IMG/VR virus record: IMGVR_UViG_3300044974_000700
Span: 1-64,000 of that record
Origin: a virus
Direction: 5' to 3' (one strand)
DNA: 64,000 nucleotides
Below the pieces are notes generated by a model. The model searched no databases, was not told the DNA's origin, and saw only the letters and a list, made by a program, of their open reading frames with translations. Made by a program: the position numbers and the translations under genes. This document shows positions 18,618 through 58,872 of the stretch, one piece after another; the first letter of the stretch is position 1; every line of letters begins with the position of its first letter.

Positions 18618-21600
18618 ATGAAAGGAAAACTAATGAGAACTTACTCTATTGAGGATTTACTAGTAGGACAATTCTATCGCCCTACTTCTTATGCCCGCCG
18701 ATTTTTCGGTGGAGAAATAAATTTCGCTGAAAAGCGAGATGATGTCTGGGTAGGCACGGATTATCAAGCCTATTCAATTCGCTATCGTGTCGGTCAGTCA
18801 GTAAAAAATGAATGGGCTACCATAGCGGTAAAAGTCGCCGACTTATAAATGTCGGTGGCTTCCACTATAATCCAATTACTAACGAAAGGAAAACTAAAAT
18901 GGATTTGATCGAATTTCGCAATTATGTAAAGGCTGAGCGTGAAGCAACACGCCAGCAAAACCTCACCGCAATTTTGTCGGTGGCTTCTGCTACAATTACA
19001 GACAACAACGAACGAAAGGAAAACTAAAATGAAAGTAATTCACACTCTATCTTTTGACTGTGACACCTGCTATGGAAAAGGCTGGTTATTCTATGGCGGA
19101 AATGAGGATTATAATGTTGAACCTTGTGACTGTAATCCTAATTCTGATTTTGATGGCTCACTATTCACGAACGGAGAAAACGAATAATGTATAAAATAAC
19201 TGTTGCCTATGATGAAAACGCTCCCCACTATAATCAACAATTTTCAGATGAACTAGAGGCTCACAAAAGTTTTGCTAGTTATGTGGATTGGGGATTTGCT
19301 AACGAATACTCAACTGTAAATCTTTTTACACCTAACGGAAAATGCTATACAAAAATTTTCTATCGTGAAGGTAGAAGGGTGGTTGAAAAATAATGATGAC
19401 ACGCAAAGACTATGTTGCTACCGCAGAAATTCTGCGGTATGTATCAGATAAAACTCACCCTGCTGTATTTTCTAAAATGGTTGTAGATTTTGCGGAGATG
19501 TTCGCAAAAGATAATCCAAAATTTGACGCAACAAAATTTTATTCCGCAAGTAATTATAAAATTCCAAGTTTTAGGAGTTGAAATGAAATTACCAAATAAA
19601 GAAAGAATAAAAAAAGTTTTGGAAATTCGCCGCAGTAATGCGGCGCAGCCAATTCCTAGTAAAAAAGTTTATTCACGAAAACGAAAACATAAAAAAACCG
19701 CAGTCGGAAAATCTATGAATTGGGATTAGTTGAAATTTCAACTAAGCGCCCGCAAAAGACTGTGGGGGCCAAAAGCTCGTTACGTCAAGTCAGAAATATG
19801 CTGGAAATTTGTGAGGTTTATCACAAAAAATAATTTCCGACACGCCGATACTCAAATAGAAATTGTCAGTAATCTAATGTATAATTCCAACCATAACAAC
19901 AACGAAAGGAAAAAAATGACAGACACAACTAACTGGGCTAAATACCCATTCACCGTAGATGGTGTGGAATTCGTATCACTACTAGACCCTAATGGCTCTA
20001 TGTATCAACAGGTATCTCGCATTCCTGCTTCTCTATTTACTACTATGAACGAGGGCGCTATCCGTGAAATCGTCGGTAAAGTTTCTCTAATGTCTAAGTC
20101 TGAAATTCAAGCAGAACTAGACCGTGTAAATGACGGATACTCTCAGGCTTATTTAGCCTTAGCCTAAAATGTCGGTGGGCTAGTGTATAATCTAGCCCAC
20201 TAACAACAAACGAAAGGGAATTATGTTATCAACTGCTTCTGCTCTACTTGAGGCTACTCAAGAGGGAATAATTGGCGATGAACAAATGGAACTTGCTTCT
20301 TTTATTGTAAATGCTCGCCACGAACTAGACCAAGAACAATTTGCTAAAGCGATGTTTATGTATGCTACTGCTATTGCTTCATGCGTAACTGATAAAGTTA
20401 CTAAAGTGTTACTAACTGAAACACAATTTAGAGAACTAATTGAAACTATTGACGAAATGGAAACAATGTCTAACGAGGTGTTAAATGGGAAGTAATTTTG
20501 CTACTGATTTAGCTGACTATGATTTAGGATTAGATTTATCTACTGCCTTAGAGATACACTTAACTTCTAATCATTACCCGCCCATTCCTAAAACTATGGT
20601 GCTTCCTTGTATTGAGGCGCTTGAGGCTTATTGGGAGGATGAAACTGATCGTGAGATACCTATGCCCGAAGGCGTATCCTACAAAGGTGGGAATACCGCA
20701 CCAGCATGGGCTATTATTGAACAACACCACCTAGAGGCGTGGCTATAAAAAATGTCGGTGGGGTGGTGTATAATCACCCTGTCAAACTAACGAAAGGAAA
20801 CAAATGCTAGAAATCGGACAAACCTATACAACCACTACGAGTGGAATTGTTGGAATTATCAAGGCGATTGATAATCACCCAAGTGGAGTAAATCGTATTC
20901 TCCTTGATGTAAATGGCGCAGAACGCTGGACAAGCGCACCTGCTAACTAACAACTAAATAGGCAGGGCTCACCTAAAATGTCGGTGGGCTCTGCTATAAT
21001 AAAGAACTAAAACCATAACGAAAGGAAATCAAATGGCTAGAAATGGAAAAGCGATAAATGTAAAAATCGCTACAACTAAAGTAATCAAGGCACTAGAGGG
21101 TGCGTTGGCTAAGTTAGAAAAAGAGTTTGCTTCACAAGAGGCAAATGAGGCTAAGCACGACAAGGCAGTAAAGGCATGGAATAAAGAGGTTGCTAAACTT
21201 GCTATGTCTGCTATCAACAAGGCAGAGGATTTGTCTGCTCATACAAGATACAATGGCGAAATCCAAGTATCTTTCTCACTACCTAAAAACTCTATTGAAA
21301 TACCTGCTGAACCTAAGAAAGACTATGTGTCTATCCATGAGTGGCAGTATCGTGAGAATAAAGAGGAAATTGAGAACGCAATTCGTATTCTCAAGATGAC
21401 AGATGAGGAAGTCGTAAGCACTTCTACTTACAACGCTATCGCTCGTTATCTCTAATAAAATGGGGGCTAGACAAAATCTAGCCCCCTATGTTAGAATACT
21501 CTAACGCAAAAGAACCCTGACCTGAGTAAGTCAAGTGATAAACTGCTCAACCAATTATCCCTACTAACAGAAAGTAAAAAAAATGCGTAATAGATTTAGA

Positions 21601-21840
21601 ATTGAAATCTATGATGAAAATAAGTTAAACGATTTAACTCTTTACTCAGAACAAGGCGTAGATAAAGAATACTTAACTGAAATGGTGTTTTCTAATTTAT
21701 CTCAATTTTCTGGTAAAGTAAAAGCATATGTCTATGATGAATTAAAAAAGAAAAAGACAGTTGCTTTATTAATACCTGAAGAAACTGTAACTAAATATAA
21801 ACCAAAACAATTAACTAGAATTGAGTTAGGTTTAATTTAA
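18618..21840 (+). CDS. Small early-type hypothetical ORFs (18618-18848, 18899-19027, 19029-19187, 19187-19393, 19393-19581, 19583-19729, 19916-20167, 20223-20495, 20485-20748, 20804-20950, 21033-21455, 21583-21840)
   Basis: Strong RBS (often AACGAAAGGAA) and individual promoters; no function recognised. Confidence 0.7.
21518..21549 (+). ncRNA. H-type pseudoknot RNA element, copy 1
   Basis: TGAC-CTGAGTAA-GTCA...AAACTGCTCA; homologous to 50475-50504. Confidence 0.55.
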
Positions 21841-22014
21841 AATAATTGGGGCGGGTTTGAACTGTGTAATCATCTAGATCCCCGCCCCAATCAAATTTTG
21901 CCCGCAAAGACTGTGGGGGCACAAAGCTCTTTACGTCAAATTATAAAAATCCCTTAAATTAATTGTAAATGTCAGTGGCACCTGTTATAATAATGGCCTA
22001 GCGAAAGGAAAAGT

Positions 22015-22731
22015 ATGTTAAAACGCTCGAAAGATAGAAAGGTCGCTAATGCCGTCTCCCCTAATGGAAAAACCCCAACAATTGCCAACACTTTTGGATT
22101 GCCTGCTGGAAAGAATTTCTCGTGTCCTGGTGCCACAAGTATTTGTGAAAGCGTATGCTACGCAGGAAAACTTGAAAAAGTCTACAAGGGAGTAAAAGCC
22201 GTACTCTTACACAATTGGGAATTGCTACGCAATGCAGACCATGACACTATGGTATCCCTAATTGATAGCATGATTGTGGAATTCAAGGCGGAATGCGATA
22301 AGCGTTCTGCAGATAAACTATTCCGCATTCACTGGGATGGCGATTTCTTTAATGATACTTATGCATATGCGTGGAAGACAGTAATCGAAAGCCATAAGGA
22401 TGTTCAATTTTGGGTATATACTCGTGTCTCTTCTGCCGCCGTCATTCTAAAAGATATTTCTAACCTATCTCTTTATTATTCTACCGATGATGAGAATAAA
22501 GATATTGCTGCAGGCCTACGCAATGAACACGGTACACGTCTTGCATATTTAGGAAAAACTTTTGCAGTCACCGAAACTACTATGAAAGAATTAACGGGTA
22601 AAGTGGGTGCAAAGTGTCCTGAAAATAATAAATCAATTCCGCTAATATCTACTAATGGTAGCGCATGTGTATCATGCGGATTGTGTGTATTTAATAAAGC
22701 AGATATTCGATTTTCTGCAAGCAAAAAATAA
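22015..22731 (+). CDS. Gp88-like protein (radical-SAM-like Cys motif)
   Basis: CPGATSICESVCYA, FRIHWDGDF, FWVYTR, C-terminal CP...CVSCGLC. Confidence 0.75.
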   Translation: MLKRSKDRKVANAVSPNGKTPTIANTFGLPAGKNFSCPGATSICESVCYAGKLEKVYKGVKAVLLHNWELLRNADHDTMVSLIDSMIVEFKAECDKRSADKLFRIHWDGDFFNDTYAYAWKTVIESHKDVQFWVYTRVSSAAVILKDISNLSLYYSTDDENKDIAAGLRNEHGTRLAYLGKTFAVTETTMKELTGKVGAKCPENNKSIPLISTNGSACVSCGLCVFNKADIRFSASKK

Positions 22732-22924
22732 GATCGGCAGCGAAAGCTGCCCGCAAGAACTGTGGGGGCGCCGAGCTCTTTACGTCAAGTCCAAAACACC
22801 CCTGGATTTTGTGATAATGCTCACAGATGTCCAATTTGCCCCATCTTACATCTAATCTATTGCCAAATGTCGGTGGGGTAGTGTATAATTCAGATTCAAT
22901 CTAACAATGAAAGGAAATAAATTC

Positions 22925-23935
22925 ATGGCTCACAACCTAGAAATGAATGGCAACGATGTTGCTTTTGCCCTACGTGGCACACCTGCTTGGCATAATCTTG
23001 CCAATCGTATCTTCTCACAAGATGAAGACGTATCAACTCAACTAATGCTAGATGAGGCTAAACTTTCCAATTGGGATGTTCGCTTATCTCCATTATCCGA
23101 TTTTGTTCCTGCTGATTGGAATGAAACTTCAGATTCACAATTAGTTATTAGAACTAATCCATTTACAAATGGAACTGATGTTTTATCTACTGTAGGCTCA
23201 CGATATAAAGTGGTTCAGAATGAAGAACTATTTTCATTCGCTGATAATATCCTAGATGGCGATTCTCGCTGTGCTTGGGAATCTGCTGGTTCATTAAAGA
23301 ATGGTAAAGTCGTTTTCGGCTCCCTTACTGTTCCCCGTGAAATGGTATTAGACCCACAAGGTGCTAACGATACAACAAAATTGTATCTAATCGTTTGGAC
23401 ATCTCACGATGGTTCTGTCGCTGTTCAAGCAGCAATCACGCCTGTGCGTGTTGTATGCCAAAACACTTTGAATCTCGCAATGCGCTCTGCTAAGCAATCT
23501 TTCAAGATTCGCCATACTCAGACCGCTGAGGGTAAGATTCAAATCGCTCGTGAAACTCTTGGTCTAACTCTTGGATACTTTGATGCGTTCGAGAAAGAGG
23601 CTCAGGAATTGTTCAAGTCAGAAATTACTGATAAGCAATTTTCTGAACTTATCAAGACTATTTATCCTAAGCCTGCGGAAGATGCTTCCAAATTGGCTTT
23701 AACTAAGTGGGAGAATAAAGTTGTCTTGCTTGATGACCTTTATCATAATTCTCCAACGAATGCTAATATCAAGGGAACTAAGTGGGGCGCATTCAACGCT
23801 CTAACTGAACGCCTTGATTATTTCCGACCAACTCGGAAAAATAATTCAGAATCTAAGTGGGCTTCTGCTTCAGGTTTTGACCCGATTATTACTGCTGAGA
23901 AAAATAAAATTCTTCAAGTTGTAAAATCATTCTAA
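22925..23935 (+). CDS. DUF932-family phage/plasmid protein
   Basis: PAWH, YKVVQNEELF, ESAGSL, SHDGS, PVRVVCQNT, IRHT, GTKWGAFNALTE. Confidence 0.85.
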   Translation: MAHNLEMNGNDVAFALRGTPAWHNLANRIFSQDEDVSTQLMLDEAKLSNWDVRLSPLSDFVPADWNETSDSQLVIRTNPFTNGTDVLSTVGSRYKVVQNEELFSFADNILDGDSRCAWESAGSLKNGKVVFGSLTVPREMVLDPQGANDTTKLYLIVWTSHDGSVAVQAAITPVRVVCQNTLNLAMRSAKQSFKIRHTQTAEGKIQIARETLGLTLGYFDAFEKEAQELFKSEITDKQFSELIKTIYPKPAEDASKLALTKWENKVVLLDDLYHNSPTNANIKGTKWGAFNALTERLDYFRPTRKNNSESKWASASGFDPIITAEKNKILQVVKSF

Positions 23936-23940
23936 AGAAT

Positions 23941-23960
23941 GGGGCCCCGCAAGGGGCCCC
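23941..23960 (+). terminator. Intrinsic terminator
   Basis: GGGGCCCC-GCAA-GGGGCCCC followed by a pyrimidine tail. Confidence 0.65.
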
Positions 23961-24114
23961 TCCTCTTTGATCTAATTTGACAAAGCTGCAAAACGCCCGC
24001 AGAAGCTAAAGGCAGAAAATGTGTTTTACGTCACATTTTAAAAATCCTCTAAAACCCTGGACTTTTGTCAGTGAGGTCCGCTATAATACTCCACATAACA
24101 ACGAAAGGAATAAA

Positions 24115-25571
24115 ATGGAAACAGTAACAAATGATATGTATAACCCACATTCATTGGTAACTCTTAAGAAGATTATCAATACAGAAAGCGGAGATGTACA
24201 GTTTGAACTATATAAGGTTACAGAACTAGAATCAGTTCTAGATGAAATGACTCGTCGCAATAATCTTATTTCACAACGTATCGAAGCACAAGAAAAACAA
24301 ATTGGTCAGATTATAGATAACTTAACTGCACAGGGTTGGTATAACCCTAATTATGAGAAGTCAGAAGTTTTGTCAGACCTATGTGATATTCTTGGCCATG
24401 AACCAAAGCAAGAAATTCGTATTACTGCAACCGTGCAGGTTGAAGTTGTATATGACTGCCCACTTGATGAGGTTGAAGACTTTGACGCAAGATATTTCTT
24501 GCAAGATGTACTTACAGTTGATGCATATAATGGAGATGTCATTGTTGAGTCATTCGATGTTGAAGATGCGGACGTGAACTGGTAATGTATTATCAATTAC
24601 AGGCACCCACTAGCGCAGCCTGCAAGGCTGCCTATTGGGAGGCAGAGTTTTCAGGGCTTGACCCATATTGGCTTGAATCTAATGTATTTGAATTAGGAAC
24701 AGGAAGCATTGAAAAAGTTTCTGCCTTGATTTCCAAATATAATCTTGATATACTAGTTGAATCAGATTATCAACCAACTGGTTACACAAGGAGGTAGTAT
24801 GGATTACAAAGACGGTTTTGAAGACGGAGTTAAGTTTACTCGTGAAGTCATCATTGCTAATATTCGTAAATGGGCTGAGGATTCTATTCTTGGAGAAGAA
24901 GGAGCAATTATGGATAGCATTGCAGATAAAATCGAATTTGGGACATTAGACAATGACCTCTGAGGATCTTACAATAGAATGGATTAAATGTGATTCTTGC
25001 TCTGCCCGTGCAGCTTGGGTTGCACGTGGTACTAGTGGTGAGCTTACATTTTGTGGACACCATTTAAATAAGAATAAGCAGGCCCTTGACAGTTGGGCCT
25101 ATGAAATTATAGAATTGGGTAAAGAAGAACTACCTAAAAAACAAACTAGACGAAAGGCGGTACAAAATGGGTGACAGAGCAAACTTTGTATTTGTTCAAC
25201 CAAGCGGAGAAACCATTGTTTTATACGGACACTGGGCAGGACATGGCATGTTAGAAAAATTAGGTGAGGCTGTAGCAAAAGCACAGCCACGCTGGACGGA
25301 CCCTTCATATGCTACACGAATTGCTATCAGTCAAATGATTGGCGACGGATGGGGCATGGAAACTGGATGGGGCCTGCAGGTCAATGAGATATCTGATAAT
25401 GAGCACAAGATTCCTGTGATTAATTGGATAGACCAAACAATGTCTCTGCATGAAGAGGATTCATTCTATAACGAATCTAATAAGGTCCGTGGAATGAAGA
25501 ACGACGCTATATTTACCATGGACTTGAGAACGTTTGTAGAGAAATACACAGACGCCAAGATTTTGGTATAA
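24115..25571 (+). CDS. Hypothetical early ORFs (24115-24585, 24585-24797, 24799-24963, 24953-25174 with CDSC/CGHH zinc motif, 25167-25571)
   Basis: Translationally coupled ORFs with RBS. Confidence 0.7.
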
Positions 25572-25578
25572 TATTAAT

Positions 25579-25701
25579 AATGAGGTGCCGCTACTAGCGA
25601 TTCCGCAAGTGGTTAACTAAAGCAGCGTTTACTTAAATTCCTTTCGTTTGGCTAGCAGCCTCATGTTAATAGGGCCCCTGGAATCCAGGGGCCCTTCCTT
25701 T
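25579..25701 (+). ncRNA. Candidate trans-acting sRNA containing the antisense of the early-gene leader
   Basis: Own TGGTATAAT at 25564-25572; closing stem ATGAGG/CCTCAT plus GCTACTAGC/GCTAGCAGC; TTCCTTTCGTT at 25638-25648; terminator GGGCCCCTGG/CCAGGGGCCC at 25672-25694. Confidence 0.55.
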
Positions 25702-25866
25702 TGCCCGTAGTTTGTGAGGGTAGCAAAAGCTTGTTACGTTGTCAAGCCAAAATCCCCTAAAATTGTGAGGTTTTGATCACAAACCTTACACTACATGTGA
25801 GGTTTATCATATAGACATTTGTCAGTGGGTGGATGTATAATAATGCCAATAACGAAAGGAAATAAT

Positions 25867-26616
25867 ATGCCAAACTGGGTATATAACGGATTAACTATAG
25901 AGGGAAATCCACAATTAGTCAATACATTGGTAGCACAATTAAATAAGCCATTTGTTCAAGTTCATGATTCATGGAACATGGAAAATGGTCAAATGGAAAA
26001 AAAGCAAACTACATATCCTAATCCTGTATTTGCATTTCATAATATCTATAATCATTTACAAGCAAGTATTACTGAATATGAATATCTTCAGCAACCCGAC
26101 CATAAATTACCAATTGCAGAACAAATGAAATTTGCAACAAATGATTGGTATTCATTTAATGTTCGTGAATGGGGAACAAAATGGGATGTTGCTGTATCTT
26201 CAGATAATGAATATCCTGATACATATATTGAAGGACCTACTCCTAATGGAGAGAATCTAGTTGTATATTATAATTTTAATACTGCTTGGTCTCCACCGTT
26301 CCCTGCCCTTGCAAAATTATCTGCACAATATCCAGCATTACTACTTACACTTAGTTATGAAGAAGAAACAGGTTGGGGTGGTGAATGTGAATTCCTACGT
26401 GGTGAAATGATATCTAATTCAGAATATGAAAGCATGTGTCGTGATTGTGAAGCAACAGATACATTAGATTATTGTGAGAATGACTGTGGCCAAATCTGTT
26501 CTAAATGTAATTGGCTTGGGGAGGCAGACCTAGAATGTGTCAAAGAATGTCAGACCCATAAGATATACTTGGATTCCGAGCATGTCCCTGATTATAGAAT
26601 GGAGCAAATCAAATGA
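25867..26616 (+). CDS. DUF1281/YubB-like ferredoxin-fold protein
   Basis: MPNW, WY..N...WGTKWD, FNTAWSPP; Cys-rich tail. Confidence 0.75.
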   Translation: MPNWVYNGLTIEGNPQLVNTLVAQLNKPFVQVHDSWNMENGQMEKKQTTYPNPVFAFHNIYNHLQASITEYEYLQQPDHKLPIAEQMKFATNDWYSFNVREWGTKWDVAVSSDNEYPDTYIEGPTPNGENLVVYYNFNTAWSPPFPALAKLSAQYPALLLTLSYEEETGWGGECEFLRGEMISNSEYESMCRDCEATDTLDYCENDCGQICSKCNWLGEADLECVKECQTHKIYLDSEHVPDYRMEQIK

Positions 26617-27809
26617 GTTTCCTAGAAGAAGCCAACATTAACCAAATGGTTATTGATTATGAGATACAAGTAATATCAGAACATCTATTTGATGAATGGA
26701 TGAATTCTAATTTAGATGAAGGTTCATTTTATGCAGATTATCAATTTGCAGTAATGTGTGATTCTAAAGAGATTAAACAAGCATTTAATCAATTCTATAA
26801 TTTAAAGGAGGATGATGAACATTATGTTGGGTTATAAATTAAAAGATGTAGAAGAAATGGTTGAAGGTTTATTGAATGTACATGAATCTTTACCTGATTC
26901 TAGGAATAAAGAAGAAGTTTGGTTAGCCGCCGACTTTTTAATTGGATTAATGGAAGAGGGGCATGTTCAATAATGGAATCAGAATACATTCGTAGAACTG
27001 GTCAACTGAAAGAATATATAAAGCTCCATATAATTAGTTTGGAACAAGACTTAGAGGGAATTGCTGAACAAATGGAAATGCTTGACCCTGAATCTAAGGA
27101 ATGTAAAGAACTAGATTTTGAATATAATCATTGGAGTGGGCAATTGCTTTCTGCCCGCCACATTTTGTCAGTGGCAGAGGATATACTAGGATGATGTACA
27201 CAACTGAACTACCAGACAATCTACAGAAACTTGTCGACATGAACATCCCTGGAACCGATATCTTGCACGGTGAACTTAAGTGGCTAATGAAAGAGGCCGA
27301 AGAGCAACTGGAGTTGGCACAGGAGGCAGAGAACAAGACTGGCGAAGCCATGGATTCCATGGACCGCAAATATTGGGAGGGACAGTTAGACGCTCTCTCA
27401 CATGTATATGCATTAACATACCAATTAGCATTTGCAATAGACGAAAGGACAAAAGCACGTGGCTGAATTAGATCTAAATAAACTATATAACGATATGGTT
27501 GATATCAATGACAGGATTACCAAACTTCCTGTATTCCCGTCCCTTGGCTGGGTATGGACCTTTGACATCTTAAAAGATATCTTTGATAACAATCATGAAG
27601 ACGGTATGGCTGAAGGTGACATCATTGATGAGGTCGTTCCTACTGCAGTTACCTTACAACAAATCTTTAATAAGTTCTACGAAGACATCGACAAGTTGGA
27701 CCTTAACATGGACCAAGGTGGCGAAATGTTGGAGGAGACAATCAGAGACTGGATGAGAGACAACGACTTCCTCGTTGCTCTAGACGAAGACGGGTGGTTA
27801 GATGACTAG
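26613..27809 (+). CDS. Acidic hypothetical ORFs (26613-26837, 26973-27194, 27191-27466, 27459-27809)
   Basis: Coupled ORFs; 26973 and 27191 products share a (Y/H)W.GQL motif. Confidence 0.65.
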
Positions 27810-28122
27810 AAAAGACTATAAGGTATTTGGGGACAAGTTGTCCAAGTACTATGTAACAATCAATGCCGAGTCCCCTGACATTGCGTGGGAGGCGGCGGCA
27901 GGCATGGATACACATCAATGGGAACAGGTCCCAACTGATTATATAATCGAACCATATGCAGTAGAAGAAATATAATAGATCTATGAGCTTTGTCTTGAAA
28001 TCGGACATTTCGGACAAAAGCTATGGGCAAAGGGCCCAAAAAATGCTTTACGCAGGTATTTACAAATTCGTGGAAATCTGCTAAAATATACATTAATAAC
28101 TGATCATGAAAGGATCAAACAA

Positions 28123-56559: not shown

Positions 56560-58346
56560 ATAATTTCCATTCCGTCTAAAACATCAGCCAACCTTTTTGG
56601 TATTGGGGCCCTGATAACATTTCTATCATCTTCAACAAGTGTTTCTTTAACCCTATCTCTAGAGCGTAAAGATGAGTATGTATGTACTTCTACATTTCCA
56701 AAATCAGGCCTTGTCAAACTAATTGCATTAAATATAGATCCGCATACCGCATCAGCTAAATCTTTAGATCCTTTTCTTGGGTGATCGACTTTATCTTTCA
56801 TGATCCTAAGCTCAAGCAACTCATCGATTAAAAGCTTTATGTGTGGCCCGCTTAATCTTTCTTCTAAAACAACCATTGCCATATCATCATAATGTTTTTT
56901 TGCTACAGATAGAGTTTCAGTATTAATACCATACTGCCTTAGCTGCTGCATCATGTCATGAGAGTTCCATCTATCGAATGTACAAATTCTAATATTAAAT
57001 CCACGTGATCTTAATGACAAAATATAATCTCTAACTTCTGTAAAGTCTACGGATTTATCAGAAGTTGGTGTCCAATATCTAACAGCATCGACTTCTACAA
57101 TCGGAGCTGGCTGAGAGTAATTATCTGTTACTTTAACATTAACCCATTTATTAATATGTGACATTGCAACAGCACAGTGGTCATGTTTTTGTGCTAAGTC
57201 TACATGTATAAAGTACTCTTTGTCTTGTTGTGGAACAAACCACTCTTCAAATCTGCCGAAATTATCTACCGCTAAAGACATATTATTGAATGCTTTCTCT
57301 ACCTTTTCTCTTGATTTAAAGAAAGCATCTATAGCTTCTGGTGGCATGCATGCAAATCTACCTAGAGCATCTATTGGGTCTCTATAAAATGGAACCTTAA
57401 AATCATCTATGCTTCTAGTGGGGTTAATCTCCCATGTAGGCCTTTTTATTGCATATATCTTTGGCAATTTATATGAAACTATATGATCTTCTTCCCAGGA
57501 AACTTCGAACTGATTGCCTGGAGTATTTTCTGGTAAATCTGGATCAATATCAAATGTATGAGTTCTAATTATAGTTTCTTTTTCTGCAACAACTTCTGCA
57601 TATCTTTGCTGAATGTAATCATTTTTAAATCTTGGAAATGAAAGTAAAATTACTTTACCGTAATCTGGAAAACGTGAATCAACAGATCCTCTATACATTT
57701 CATAAATGGCGCTGGCTGTTTTTGCCTGGTCATGTCCACTTGTACTTTCAAGAGCAAATCCAGATATCTCGTCAAGAACCGCTACTAGAACGTTATAACC
57801 TTCAAAAGCTTCTCTTTCTGAGTGTCCAGAATAAACCGTTACATTTTTATTAAATTTAATTTCAGAGGCCTTGGCTTCATATTTTCCAATAAACCACGGA
57901 CTTCTTTCAATTCTAGTCTTAAAACCTTTAAAGAAAACATTGTTAGCCTGCTGTGCGTTAATAGCAATATTAATGATGTCTATAGTATCACCAGGTGGTT
58001 TGCCATAATAAGTTGCTGGATCTTTAAGTGATAATAGCAAATAAACTATATAGGCTACAGATATGGTTGAGCAATAGTCTTTACCACTACCTTTACCTAA
58101 TTGTGCTATTACCTCATTACAAGTTTGTTTATATCTAGTTCTACCCTCTGATTCTCCAAAAAGTTTGACTAGGGTAGACTCTTTATAGATTTGGCTACTC
58201 TTCTCAATGAGTGTATACTGGTACTCCGAAAGCGGAGGTAAGCCGAGATAATCTGGGCTTGTAACAAATGTTCGTAAGTCGACTGGTCTTTCATCAAATT
58301 CCTCTCCGTCTAGGATATCAATGAGATCATTAAAATTAAGATCCAC
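56556..58346 (-). CDS. terL: Terminase large subunit
   Basis: Walker A GKGSGKD, Walker B VAVLDE, RNase H-like HVDLA, DHPRKGSKDLADA. Confidence 0.88.
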   Translation of the reverse strand: MDLNFNDLIDILDGEEFDERPVDLRTFVTSPDYLGLPPLSEYQYTLIEKSSQIYKESTLVKLFGESEGRTRYKQTCNEVIAQLGKGSGKDYCSTISVAYIVYLLLSLKDPATYYGKPPGDTIDIINIAINAQQANNVFFKGFKTRIERSPWFIGKYEAKASEIKFNKNVTVYSGHSEREAFEGYNVLVAVLDEISGFALESTSGHDQAKTASAIYEMYRGSVDSRFPDYGKVILLSFPRFKNDYIQQRYAEVVAEKETIIRTHTFDIDPDLPENTPGNQFEVSWEEDHIVSYKLPKIYAIKRPTWEINPTRSIDDFKVPFYRDPIDALGRFACMPPEAIDAFFKSREKVEKAFNNMSLAVDNFGRFEEWFVPQQDKEYFIHVDLAQKHDHCAVAMSHINKWVNVKVTDNYSQPAPIVEVDAVRYWTPTSDKSVDFTEVRDYILSLRSRGFNIRICTFDRWNSHDMMQQLRQYGINTETLSVAKKHYDDMAMVVLEERLSGPHIKLLIDELLELRIMKDKVDHPRKGSKDLADAVCGSIFNAISLTRPDFGNVEVHTYSSLRSRDRVKETLVEDDRNVIRAPIPKRLADVLDGMEII

Positions 58347-58872
58347 TTAACTCCTCGTTTATAACTACTGGCTCAACAATCCCAGTTATCTGAGAAAGTC
58401 TTTTTGCTACCTCTAATTTACATTTAGGACATGTAGCAGTAACTTCTTTTAAAATATTAACAAGTATTTCTTGTTTTCTTTCAGTGTCAGCAATTTGTGT
58501 AGCAAGTTCAGCATTATCTAAAAGGCCAACCTCTTGCAACATTCCAATTCTTTTACCCTCTATATCTGCAATTAATTTTAAAGAAGTTGCCTTTACATTT
58601 AGCTGCCCAGATTGATCTGCATCCTCTACGGTTTTCCATGCTTCTTTAATGAGCATAGCGTAATGTTGGTCAGCTCCAGAGATGGCCTCCTTTGCCCTTT
58701 CACGGGCCCCAGAATCGCTTCTGACGACCCCTTTCCACTCGTCTATATACTCTATAACCTCTGATCGCTTAAACCCTGTTAGGGTGGCAATCTGGGTAGG
58801 GTTATTTCCTTTTAATAATTCTTCTACAACCCTGTTCATACGATCAAAATGATCAGATAATTCAATTTCCAT
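58336..58872 (-). CDS. Putative terminase small subunit (N-terminal HTH)
   Basis: Directly upstream of terL; HTH-like N-terminus, helical body. Confidence 0.5.
   Translation of the reverse strand: MEIELSDHFDRMNRVVEELLKGNNPTQIATLTGFKRSEVIEYIDEWKGVVRSDSGARERAKEAISGADQHYAMLIKEAWKTVEDADQSGQLNVKATSLKLIADIEGKRIGMLQEVGLLDNAELATQIADTERKQEILVNILKEVTATCPKCKLEVAKRLSQITGIVEPVVINEELSGS

Follow-up and report, generated by a model that had tools for sequence, protein, structure and literature searches.

A conserved structured RNA of freshwater actinophages and its possible pairing with the leaders of early genes

Regulatory RNAs of lytic phages are poorly known, and a short intergenic unit in the viral record IMGVR_UViG_3300044974_000700 raises the question of whether one such RNA could act on a whole set of early messages at once. 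The window analyzed here is the first 64 kb of this 85.5-kb IMG/VR record, which has a completeness estimate of 71%. A first-pass annotation, made from the letters alone, had placed at 25564-25701 a candidate small RNA (sRNA) antisense to the ribosome-binding leader of seven early genes, with a promoter, a closing stem, a second stem and a terminator of its own. Using covariation in related phages, structure prediction and searches for the leader and its promoters, we determined whether this unit encodes a structured RNA, on which strand and with what loop, and we weighed what such an RNA might do.

A three-way junction RNA and its conservation

The structured stretch covers about 85 nucleotides (nt) on the + strand (25580-25664), or about 120 nt counting the terminator. 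Folding of the 131-nt unit gave -47.7 kcal/mol (z = -4.06), a value as good as none of 200 shuffled sequences could give. A search of IMG/VR with the 134-amino-acid (aa) protein encoded upstream provided 58 loci, and the RNA was present in all 56 that could be evaluated, the other two ending before the spacer; where we speak of the 58 relatives, 58 distinct sequences are meant. An alignment of 37 distinct sequences with a structure derived by hand had 94.4% of its cells paired and a covariation of 0.398, compared with 0.121 in shuffles, and a covariance model was built from it. This model found one copy in the record and one in each of four relatives (92-100% complete), and no RNA in Actinomycetia phage DSL-LC01, while a scan of IMG/VR with two RNA motifs only led to 34 loci that match the model among the 80 listed. 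In the 58 distinct sequences 95.7% of the cells were paired (78.5% in shuffles), 192 cells were changed on both sides (67 in shuffles), and the covariation reached 0.427 as against 0.126 in shuffles, with none of 500 shuffles as high and slid controls at 0.011-0.100. RNAalifold alone recovers the same helices, P1, P2 and P3, arranged as a three-way junction with these parts:

25580-25586, + strand: 5' strand of P1 (AUGAGGU), paired with 25658-25664 and closed at its inner end by an invariant U-G
25587-25613, + strand: P2 hairpin, GCCGCU (25587-25592) pairing with AGUGGU (25608-25613)
25614-25621, + strand: J2/3 linker of 8 nt, UAACUAAA, with the consensus UAA-N-UAA-N, the first UAA invariant, and no supported partner
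25622-25656, + strand: P3 hairpin, GCAG(C) pairing with (G)CU-A-GC around a 24-nt loop (25627-25650)
25658-25664, + strand: 3' strand of P1 (GCCUCAU), pairing with 25580-25586

P1 bears out the closing stem ATGAGG/CCTCAT of the first-pass annotation (25580-25585 with 25659-25664), and changes on both sides were seen at four of its seven pairs. The second stem proposed there, GCTACTAGC/GCTAGCAGC, found no such support: in the 58 relatives its pairing (66.7% of cells) and its covariation (0.089) were at the level of the shuffles (66.6% and 0.091). P2 was paired in 99.7% of cells in the 58 sequences, and two of its pairs had changed on both sides (GC 27, CG 19, AU 11 and UA 1 in one; GU 31, CG 10, UG 9, AU 5 and UA 3 in another); its distal part is variable (P2a, 25597-25599 with 25604-25606), and some relatives (type C) have a bare hairpin there. 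In P3, 25622-25625 pairs with 25652-25656, leaving A25654 bulged, and C25626 also pairs with G25651 in the window; the helix was 100% paired in the 58 sequences, and two of its pairs showed changes on both sides. The invariant U-G of P1 (58/58) and the many G-U pairs of P2 identify the + strand as the folded one.

Other readings of the same letters were rejected. A pseudoknot between J2/3 and the P3 loop (UAAGUAA/UUACUUA), judged by eye, is allowed by type A loops only, and it was discarded because J2/3 is unchanged where the loop lacks UUACUU; no co-variation of J2/3 with the loop was seen by eye across the loop types. Mimicry of helix 45 of 16S ribosomal RNA (rRNA) by GGUGCGGCU was rejected since P2 co-varies freely, and inspection gave inconsistent reading frames among the relatives for a tag-like or other open reading frame (ORF) through P2.

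The unit also has, by sequence prediction, a promoter and a terminator of its own that would define a short non-coding transcript:

25564-25572, + strand: extended -10 promoter TGGTATAAT, overlapping the TAA stop of the ORF at 25167-25571, with no TGTCRGTG upstream
25671-25704, + strand: intrinsic terminator, an 11-pair G+C-rich hairpin (25671-25695) followed by the T-rich tail UUCCUUUUG

Both elements had been claimed for the unit and both were found. A perfect TATAAT stands 4-39 nt before P1 in 42 of the 58 relatives, mostly with TG in front, and a -10 element with at least 5/6 matches in 46; a crude test detected a terminator-like hairpin and T-rich tail after the RNA in 41. In many relatives an extra G+C-rich 5' hairpin lies between the -10 element and P1 (L029 4420-4450; L031, L034, L040, L044), so that the TATAAT of some precedes this added hairpin, which may be a stem protecting the 5' end.

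The RNA family is abundant in freshwater viromes and dozens of IMG/VR contigs carry it. Rfam, searched at gathering score and, over 25540-25870, with E values of up to 10, gave only chance matches on the terminator; blastn of 25100-26300 against GenBank phages and an exact 32-nt scan of IMG/VR gave no match. A description of the family was not found in the literature searched, and the RNA may be among the 8,495 unnamed candidate structured RNAs from IMG/VR that are mentioned in PMC10690425. Taken together, the data leave us nearly certain that this is a genuine, conserved and uncatalogued structured small RNA of freshwater actinophages.

The P3 loop and the leaders of the early genes

The loop of P3 holds the sequence that had drawn attention to the unit:

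25638-25648, + strand: anti-leader motif UUCCUUUCGUU in the P3 loop, with the family-wide core CUUUCGUU at 25641-25648

As had been stated, the letters at 25638-25648, TTCCTTTCGTT, match the leader AACGAAAGGAA exactly in reverse complement, and when the motif is read on the minus strand no ATG, GTG or TTG stands at ribosome-binding distance. The core CUUUCGUU, which complements AACGAAAG of the early leader, was found in all 56 loci obtained through the gene; the RNA-seeded scan adds nothing on its conservation, because that scan required CUUUCGUU. Around the core the loop measures 16-24 nt across the family and takes four forms, UUUACUUAA(A)UUCCUUUCGUUUG, UUUUACUUUCGUUGGU, UUUUUCCUUUCGUUGAGGU and UUUAUUUCUUUCGUUGGAAA. 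The motif, on whose accessibility the antisense proposal depends, is predicted to be mostly open, the 11 bases having a mean unpaired probability of 0.66 and an opening cost of 1.6 kcal/mol in the window ensemble. The RNA thus carries a conserved and accessible seed complementary to mRNA start regions, with seven perfect 11-nt matches before starts:

18881-18891, + strand: leader AACGAAAGGAA, putative target 1, predicted duplex -14.6 kcal/mol
19011-19021, + strand: leader AACGAAAGGAA, putative target 2, predicted duplex -17.8 kcal/mol
19901-19911, + strand: leader AACGAAAGGAA, putative target 3
20789-20799, + strand: leader AACGAAAGGAA, putative target 4
21017-21027, + strand: leader AACGAAAGGAA, putative target 5
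24100-24110, + strand: leader AACGAAAGGAA, putative target 6
25851-25861, + strand: leader AACGAAAGGAA, putative target 7, before the gene just downstream of the RNA (25867-26616)

The count of seven early leaders agrees with the earlier one: AACGAAAGGAA has seven copies on the + strand and a single one on the - strand, where 0.05 occurrences are expected, and none of 100 shuffles reached eight. All seven + strand copies end 4-8 nt before an ATG and lie 9-16 nt after a promoter of the form TGTC(A/G)GT(G/A)-N8-TA(T/C)AAT (18850-25841, +). The promoter of the RNA lacks the TGTCRGTG of all seven targets, so that the RNA is under separate transcriptional control. We take TGTCRGTG-N8-TANNNT to be the PafBC/RecA-NDp DNA-damage promoter, and because the seven leader promoters show this pattern the host of the phage is very probably an actinobacterium. 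The leader is conserved well beyond the bases expected to pair with 16S rRNA; its AAC presumably has no pairing partner in the 16S 3' tail. PafBC acts through the RecA-NDp motif, according to PMC6789036.

The leaders belong to one of two Shine-Dalgarno classes. In the 85.5-kb record, GAAAGG followed by a start (ORF of at least 40 aa) occurs 19 times on the + strand, always within 16.9-28.4 kb, and three times on the - strand, and GGAG(G) followed by a start occurs 38 times on the - strand. The complete relative G001 has 14 GAAAGG sites on one strand (all in 65.7-76.2 kb) against four on the other, and 51 GGAGG sites on the - strand. GAAAGG thus lies nearly always in the early island of the + strand, and the - strand genes are served by GGAG(G). 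Since GGAG(G)-type sites are found outside the early island, the genes there are not leaderless, as had been supposed, and the idea that leaderless genes would be immune to the RNA has to be replaced by one of GGAGG-type genes as a different Shine-Dalgarno class, matched less well by the loop. In the relatives, gene-strand copies of AACGAAAGG are grouped close to the RNA gene, and the opposite-strand copy inside the RNA is the single one in G001 and one of two in G003.

Predicted duplexes of the loop fall where the leaders are. Ribosome sites of the early island make up 11 of the 13 best + strand sites (at or below -14.5 kcal/mol); the number of such strong sites was no higher than with shuffled loops (13 against 13.0 +/- 7.1, with 48 of 100 shuffles reaching 13). 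The anti-leader signal is therefore the position of the duplex sites and not their number. The GTG start of the terminase gene (58346-58365, -) is preceded by AAACGAGGAG, whose duplex with the loop, at -16.0 kcal/mol, is among the stronger ones on the - strand.

Proposed function and rival explanations

Conservation, fold, strand, loop position, complementarity and the division into two Shine-Dalgarno classes were observed directly, and from them we propose, with about half of our belief behind it, that the RNA is a trans-acting anti-leader sRNA for the early gene set. In most family members an extended -10 promoter of the RNA's own, of the housekeeping type, would drive its transcription and the intrinsic terminator would end it, and the three-way junction would display the P3 loop of 16-24 nt. 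The loop core CUUUCGUU (UUCCUUUCGUU in this phage) would pair with (A)ACGAAAGG(AA), that is, with the leader and the 5' half of the Shine-Dalgarno sequence, a few bases before the early start codons of mRNAs made from a different promoter class, TGTCRGTG-N8-TANNNT. Such pairing would cover the ribosome-binding site and lower the translation, perhaps also the stability, of the early set, and genes with GGAGG-type sites would be spared; that the RNA is transcribed, that it pairs in the cell, and in which direction and when it acts are our inferences.

A further-reaching version is tentative and, in our view, rather doubtful as a whole. The RNA would be a free structured copy of the mRNA-docking tail of the ribosome, extended by GUU, preferring the (AAC)GAAAGGAA class and competing with the 30S subunit for all early messages, so that in a host group without Hfq translation would switch from the early island driven by DNA-damage promoters to the GGAGG genes; a conserved convergent promoter (see below) may counter the RNA, and the lone inverted copy of the start-associated sequence (SAS) in Cluster K mycobacteriophages might be explained likewise. 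If the anti-leader proposal is true, a single RNA would switch a whole early regulon, one-to-many, and the extended start-associated motifs of actinophages, long unexplained, would gain a concrete partner. The compact and strongly co-varying new fold would also suit structural study.

Several observations weigh against an anti-leader function, besides the number of strong duplexes. Co-variation stood in the helices, with the core kept, but the loop flanks showed no convincing co-variation with the leaders. The core itself never varies; the leader base 5' of AACG was pairable in 28% of the cases where the loop has U and in 75% of those where it has G, against 25% and 72% when the groups were swapped, and the third base after GG (d3), predicted to be U with type A loops, was U in 21% of these against 17% and 14% in the others. 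GGAA leaders accompany UC-type loops in 55% of cases (46/83) and UA-type loops in 23% (8/35), a trend limited to one clade that may come from shared descent. Type B loops carry A instead of C opposite the second G of the Shine-Dalgarno sequence. Phage DSL-LC01, where the model finds no RNA, has AACGAAAGG four times (0 in controls), so that the leader can do without the RNA. By crude criteria, neither a -10 element nor a clear terminator is present in seven of the 58 relatives. The junction segments GGUGC, UAA-N-UAA and AGCRGCC are invariant or nearly so, which suggests a specific tertiary fold or a protein partner and exceeds the needs of a plain seed-bearing sRNA.

The near-invariant junction, kept while the helices vary freely, would be explained if the RNA acted through its fold, by binding a phage or host protein or as a decoy of the 16S 3' tail (its target might be a factor or nuclease specific for the anti-Shine-Dalgarno sequence); loop and leader would then match only because one ribosomal tail has shaped both. 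The reduction of distal P2 to a bare hairpin in type C, as in RNAs with a compact functional core, the unconvincing loop-leader co-variation and the tmRNA (transfer-messenger RNA), a ribosome-directed RNA, that related Streptomyces phages hold in the same genomic slot all agree with it, as does the loop CCUUUC, which we take to be part of the actinobacterial 16S 3' end. We nevertheless consider it unlikely: the invariant core is CUUUCGUU and not CCUCC, its GUU matches the AAC of the leader, type B loops lose the anti-Shine-Dalgarno CC yet keep GUU(GG), and the adjacent 134-aa protein has no recognisable RNA-binding family and occurs also in phages without the RNA. A role in cis, as a 3' stabiliser, processing site or feedback element of the upstream mRNA, or mere occupancy of an inherited tmRNA slot, appears distinctly unlikely to us. 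It would account for the constant place of the RNA directly after the 134-aa gene (56 of 56 gene-seeded and 34 of 34 RNA-seeded, model-positive loci), for the seven relatives with neither a -10 element by our criterion nor a clear terminator, for the tmRNA right after the homologous gene in phages Elmer and BoomerJR, and for an RNA-library contig that joins the end of this gene to the RNA. Against this, a mere 3' untranslated region would have no need of the perfect TATAAT, usually with TG, that 42 of 58 relatives have a short, constant way before P1 or the added 5' hairpin, and a stabilising 3' structure needs no invariant 8-nt loop sequence; moreover, the model has no match to the tmRNAs, ARAGORN found no tmRNA here or in G001, and the leader of the upstream gene, GACGAAAGGCGG, matches the loop less well than do the seven early leaders.

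An accessible seed that resembles the anti-Shine-Dalgarno sequence, and a leader motif present in a phage without the RNA, would also suit a base-pairing sRNA aimed mainly at host mRNAs of the GAAAGGA type (host shut-off), with the phage early leaders as bystanders; the GUU extension is a specific match to phage leaders, and we think this explanation very unlikely. That the inverted 11-mer is due to chance or is a DNA operator, or that the unit encodes the peptide MRCRY, was already disfavoured and seems to us hardly credible. A DNA-binding protein could indeed read 11 bp both ways, and the ATG at 25580 does open a five-codon ORF, but only 0.05 matches to the 11-mer are expected, and the helices around the loop that holds the motif co-vary and contain G-U pairs, so that selection acts on the + strand RNA. 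MRCRY itself, offered earlier as an alternative reading, occurs in two of the 58 relatives; 18 of them have an ATG within the first 12 nt, and the encoded peptides are unrelated. A riboswitch or cis-acting leader was rejected on inspection, given that the terminators differ freely among relatives, 6-10 nt from P1, and that the downstream gene has its own promoter.

The metatranscriptomes gave 16 runs with small shares of 22000-28000, and contigs of four runs were placed at a likeness of at least 90%. These RNA-library contigs cover the neighbouring genes, the bin 25618-25818 having a depth of 0 to 1.7, and the 170-nt contig mentioned above (X5) spans 25482-25651, that is, the gene end and the 5' two-thirds of the RNA. 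They speak neither for nor against a transcript, since contigs do not reveal the presence, absence, strand, ends or level of a small RNA.

Known systems and the surroundings of the RNA gene

The outcome proposed for the anti-leader RNA is that of RegA (a repressor protein) and RegB (an endoribonuclease), which shut down early messages of T4 through their ribosome-binding regions; the effectors there are proteins, and here an RNA is proposed. On the principle also proposed here, 6C RNA of Actinobacteria (RF01066) and other C-rich-loop sRNAs pair through pyrimidine-rich hairpin loops with purine-rich ribosome sites, in bacteria that are not known to have Hfq. Unlike 6C RNA, with its two C-run loops, the RNA described here is phage-encoded and has one U/C-rich loop with a CGUU extension, and the RF01066 model gave no match at E up to 10.

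The genomic slot itself has parallels in related phages. The terminase of this phage is 63-66% identical to that of Streptomyces phages of about 130 kb, and in two of these with terminases in that range (about 63-66%), Elmer (L198 1501-2197) and BoomerJR (L200 901-1594), an annotated tmRNA of about 280 nt directly follows the homologue of the 134-aa gene, with a DnaQ-like gene and tRNAs in front of that homologue. In two related lineages, then, the position after this gene is occupied by an RNA gene, whether by descent, replacement or chance. The two RNAs share the slot and little else, since the tmRNA has 280 nt, a tag reading frame and a tRNA-like end, with no match in sequence or structure to our RNA; model R1, with filters off, had no match in the tmRNA loci of Elmer and BoomerJR, and neither the record nor G001 has a tmRNA according to ARAGORN (tRNAs only), nor the record according to Rfam. 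No RNA follows the homologue in Gordonia phage Yvonnetastic or in DSL-LC01. In the latter (L067 3400-3510), the homologous gene is followed by nothing but a terminator, a promoter and the leader CAACGACGAAAGGACA.

Among phage RNAs, the c4 RNA of P1 and P7 is also small, structured and phage-encoded; its function depends on structure, its complementary sequences probably lie in loops, and its pairing around a ribosome-binding site blocks translation, according to a review (PMC12197685), whereas such a block is only proposed here. It differs in acting on one downstream operon in the immunity region of temperate phages, compared with at least seven dispersed early leaders in an apparently lytic-type island of a phage of an actinobacterial host. 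The Rfam C4 model gave no match at gathering score or at E up to 10 on 25540-25870, and the fold, here a three-way junction, is different. The passages of that review matched by term searches mention neither 'Actinobacteria' nor 'Streptomyces'.

The start-associated sequences and their extended forms (SAS/ESAS) of Cluster K mycobacteriophages resemble the leaders. According to Pope et al. (2011, PMC3203893), many non-structural genes of these phages have SAS, a short asymmetric motif, repeated a few bases upstream of their start codons; it overlaps the Shine-Dalgarno sequence, is conserved beyond the bases that pair with 16S rRNA and lies almost always in one orientation, with a single complementary-strand copy in four phages, and its authors left open whether RNA or protein binds it (PMC3203893). 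The AACGAAAGGAA leaders share with it the placement, the orientation bias and the conservation beyond rRNA-pairing bases. In contrast to AACGAAAGGAA, SAS is the 13-bp GGGATAGGAGCCC, 3-7 bp before starts, in another phage group with another host. An inverted copy within the loop of a structured RNA is the feature found here, and the passages of PMC3203893 consulted describe no partner RNA for SAS.

The immediate neighbours of the RNA gene are the following:

25167-25571, + strand: upstream ORF of 134 aa (phrog_31860, a PHROG of unknown function), directly before the RNA
25717-25745, - strand: leftward promoter-like sequence TTGACA-N17 (with TG)-TACCCT, with its -35 at 25745-25740 and its -10 at 25722-25717, pointing into the RNA gene

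The 134-aa protein has no Pfam family and no solved relative (best E 0.34), and its Atlas neighbours are unnamed; its best GenBank match, at 43%, is in the freshwater phage DSL-LC01. The hosts of the RNA-bearing phages are probably uncultured. In the genome collections the neighbouring gene is carried by four short contigs, which were assigned to bins of unrelated phyla. After the terminator come a 150-nt spacer and then the promoter, the leader and the ATG (25867) of the next gene (25867-26616). The leftward element has counterparts in the relatives, TTGAC(A/T)-N17-18 (mostly with TG)-TACCCT being found on the opposite strand within 200 nt downstream of the RNA in 49 of 57. Judging from its sequence, this promoter-like element could give rise to a transcript that runs antisense through the RNA and on into the upstream gene.

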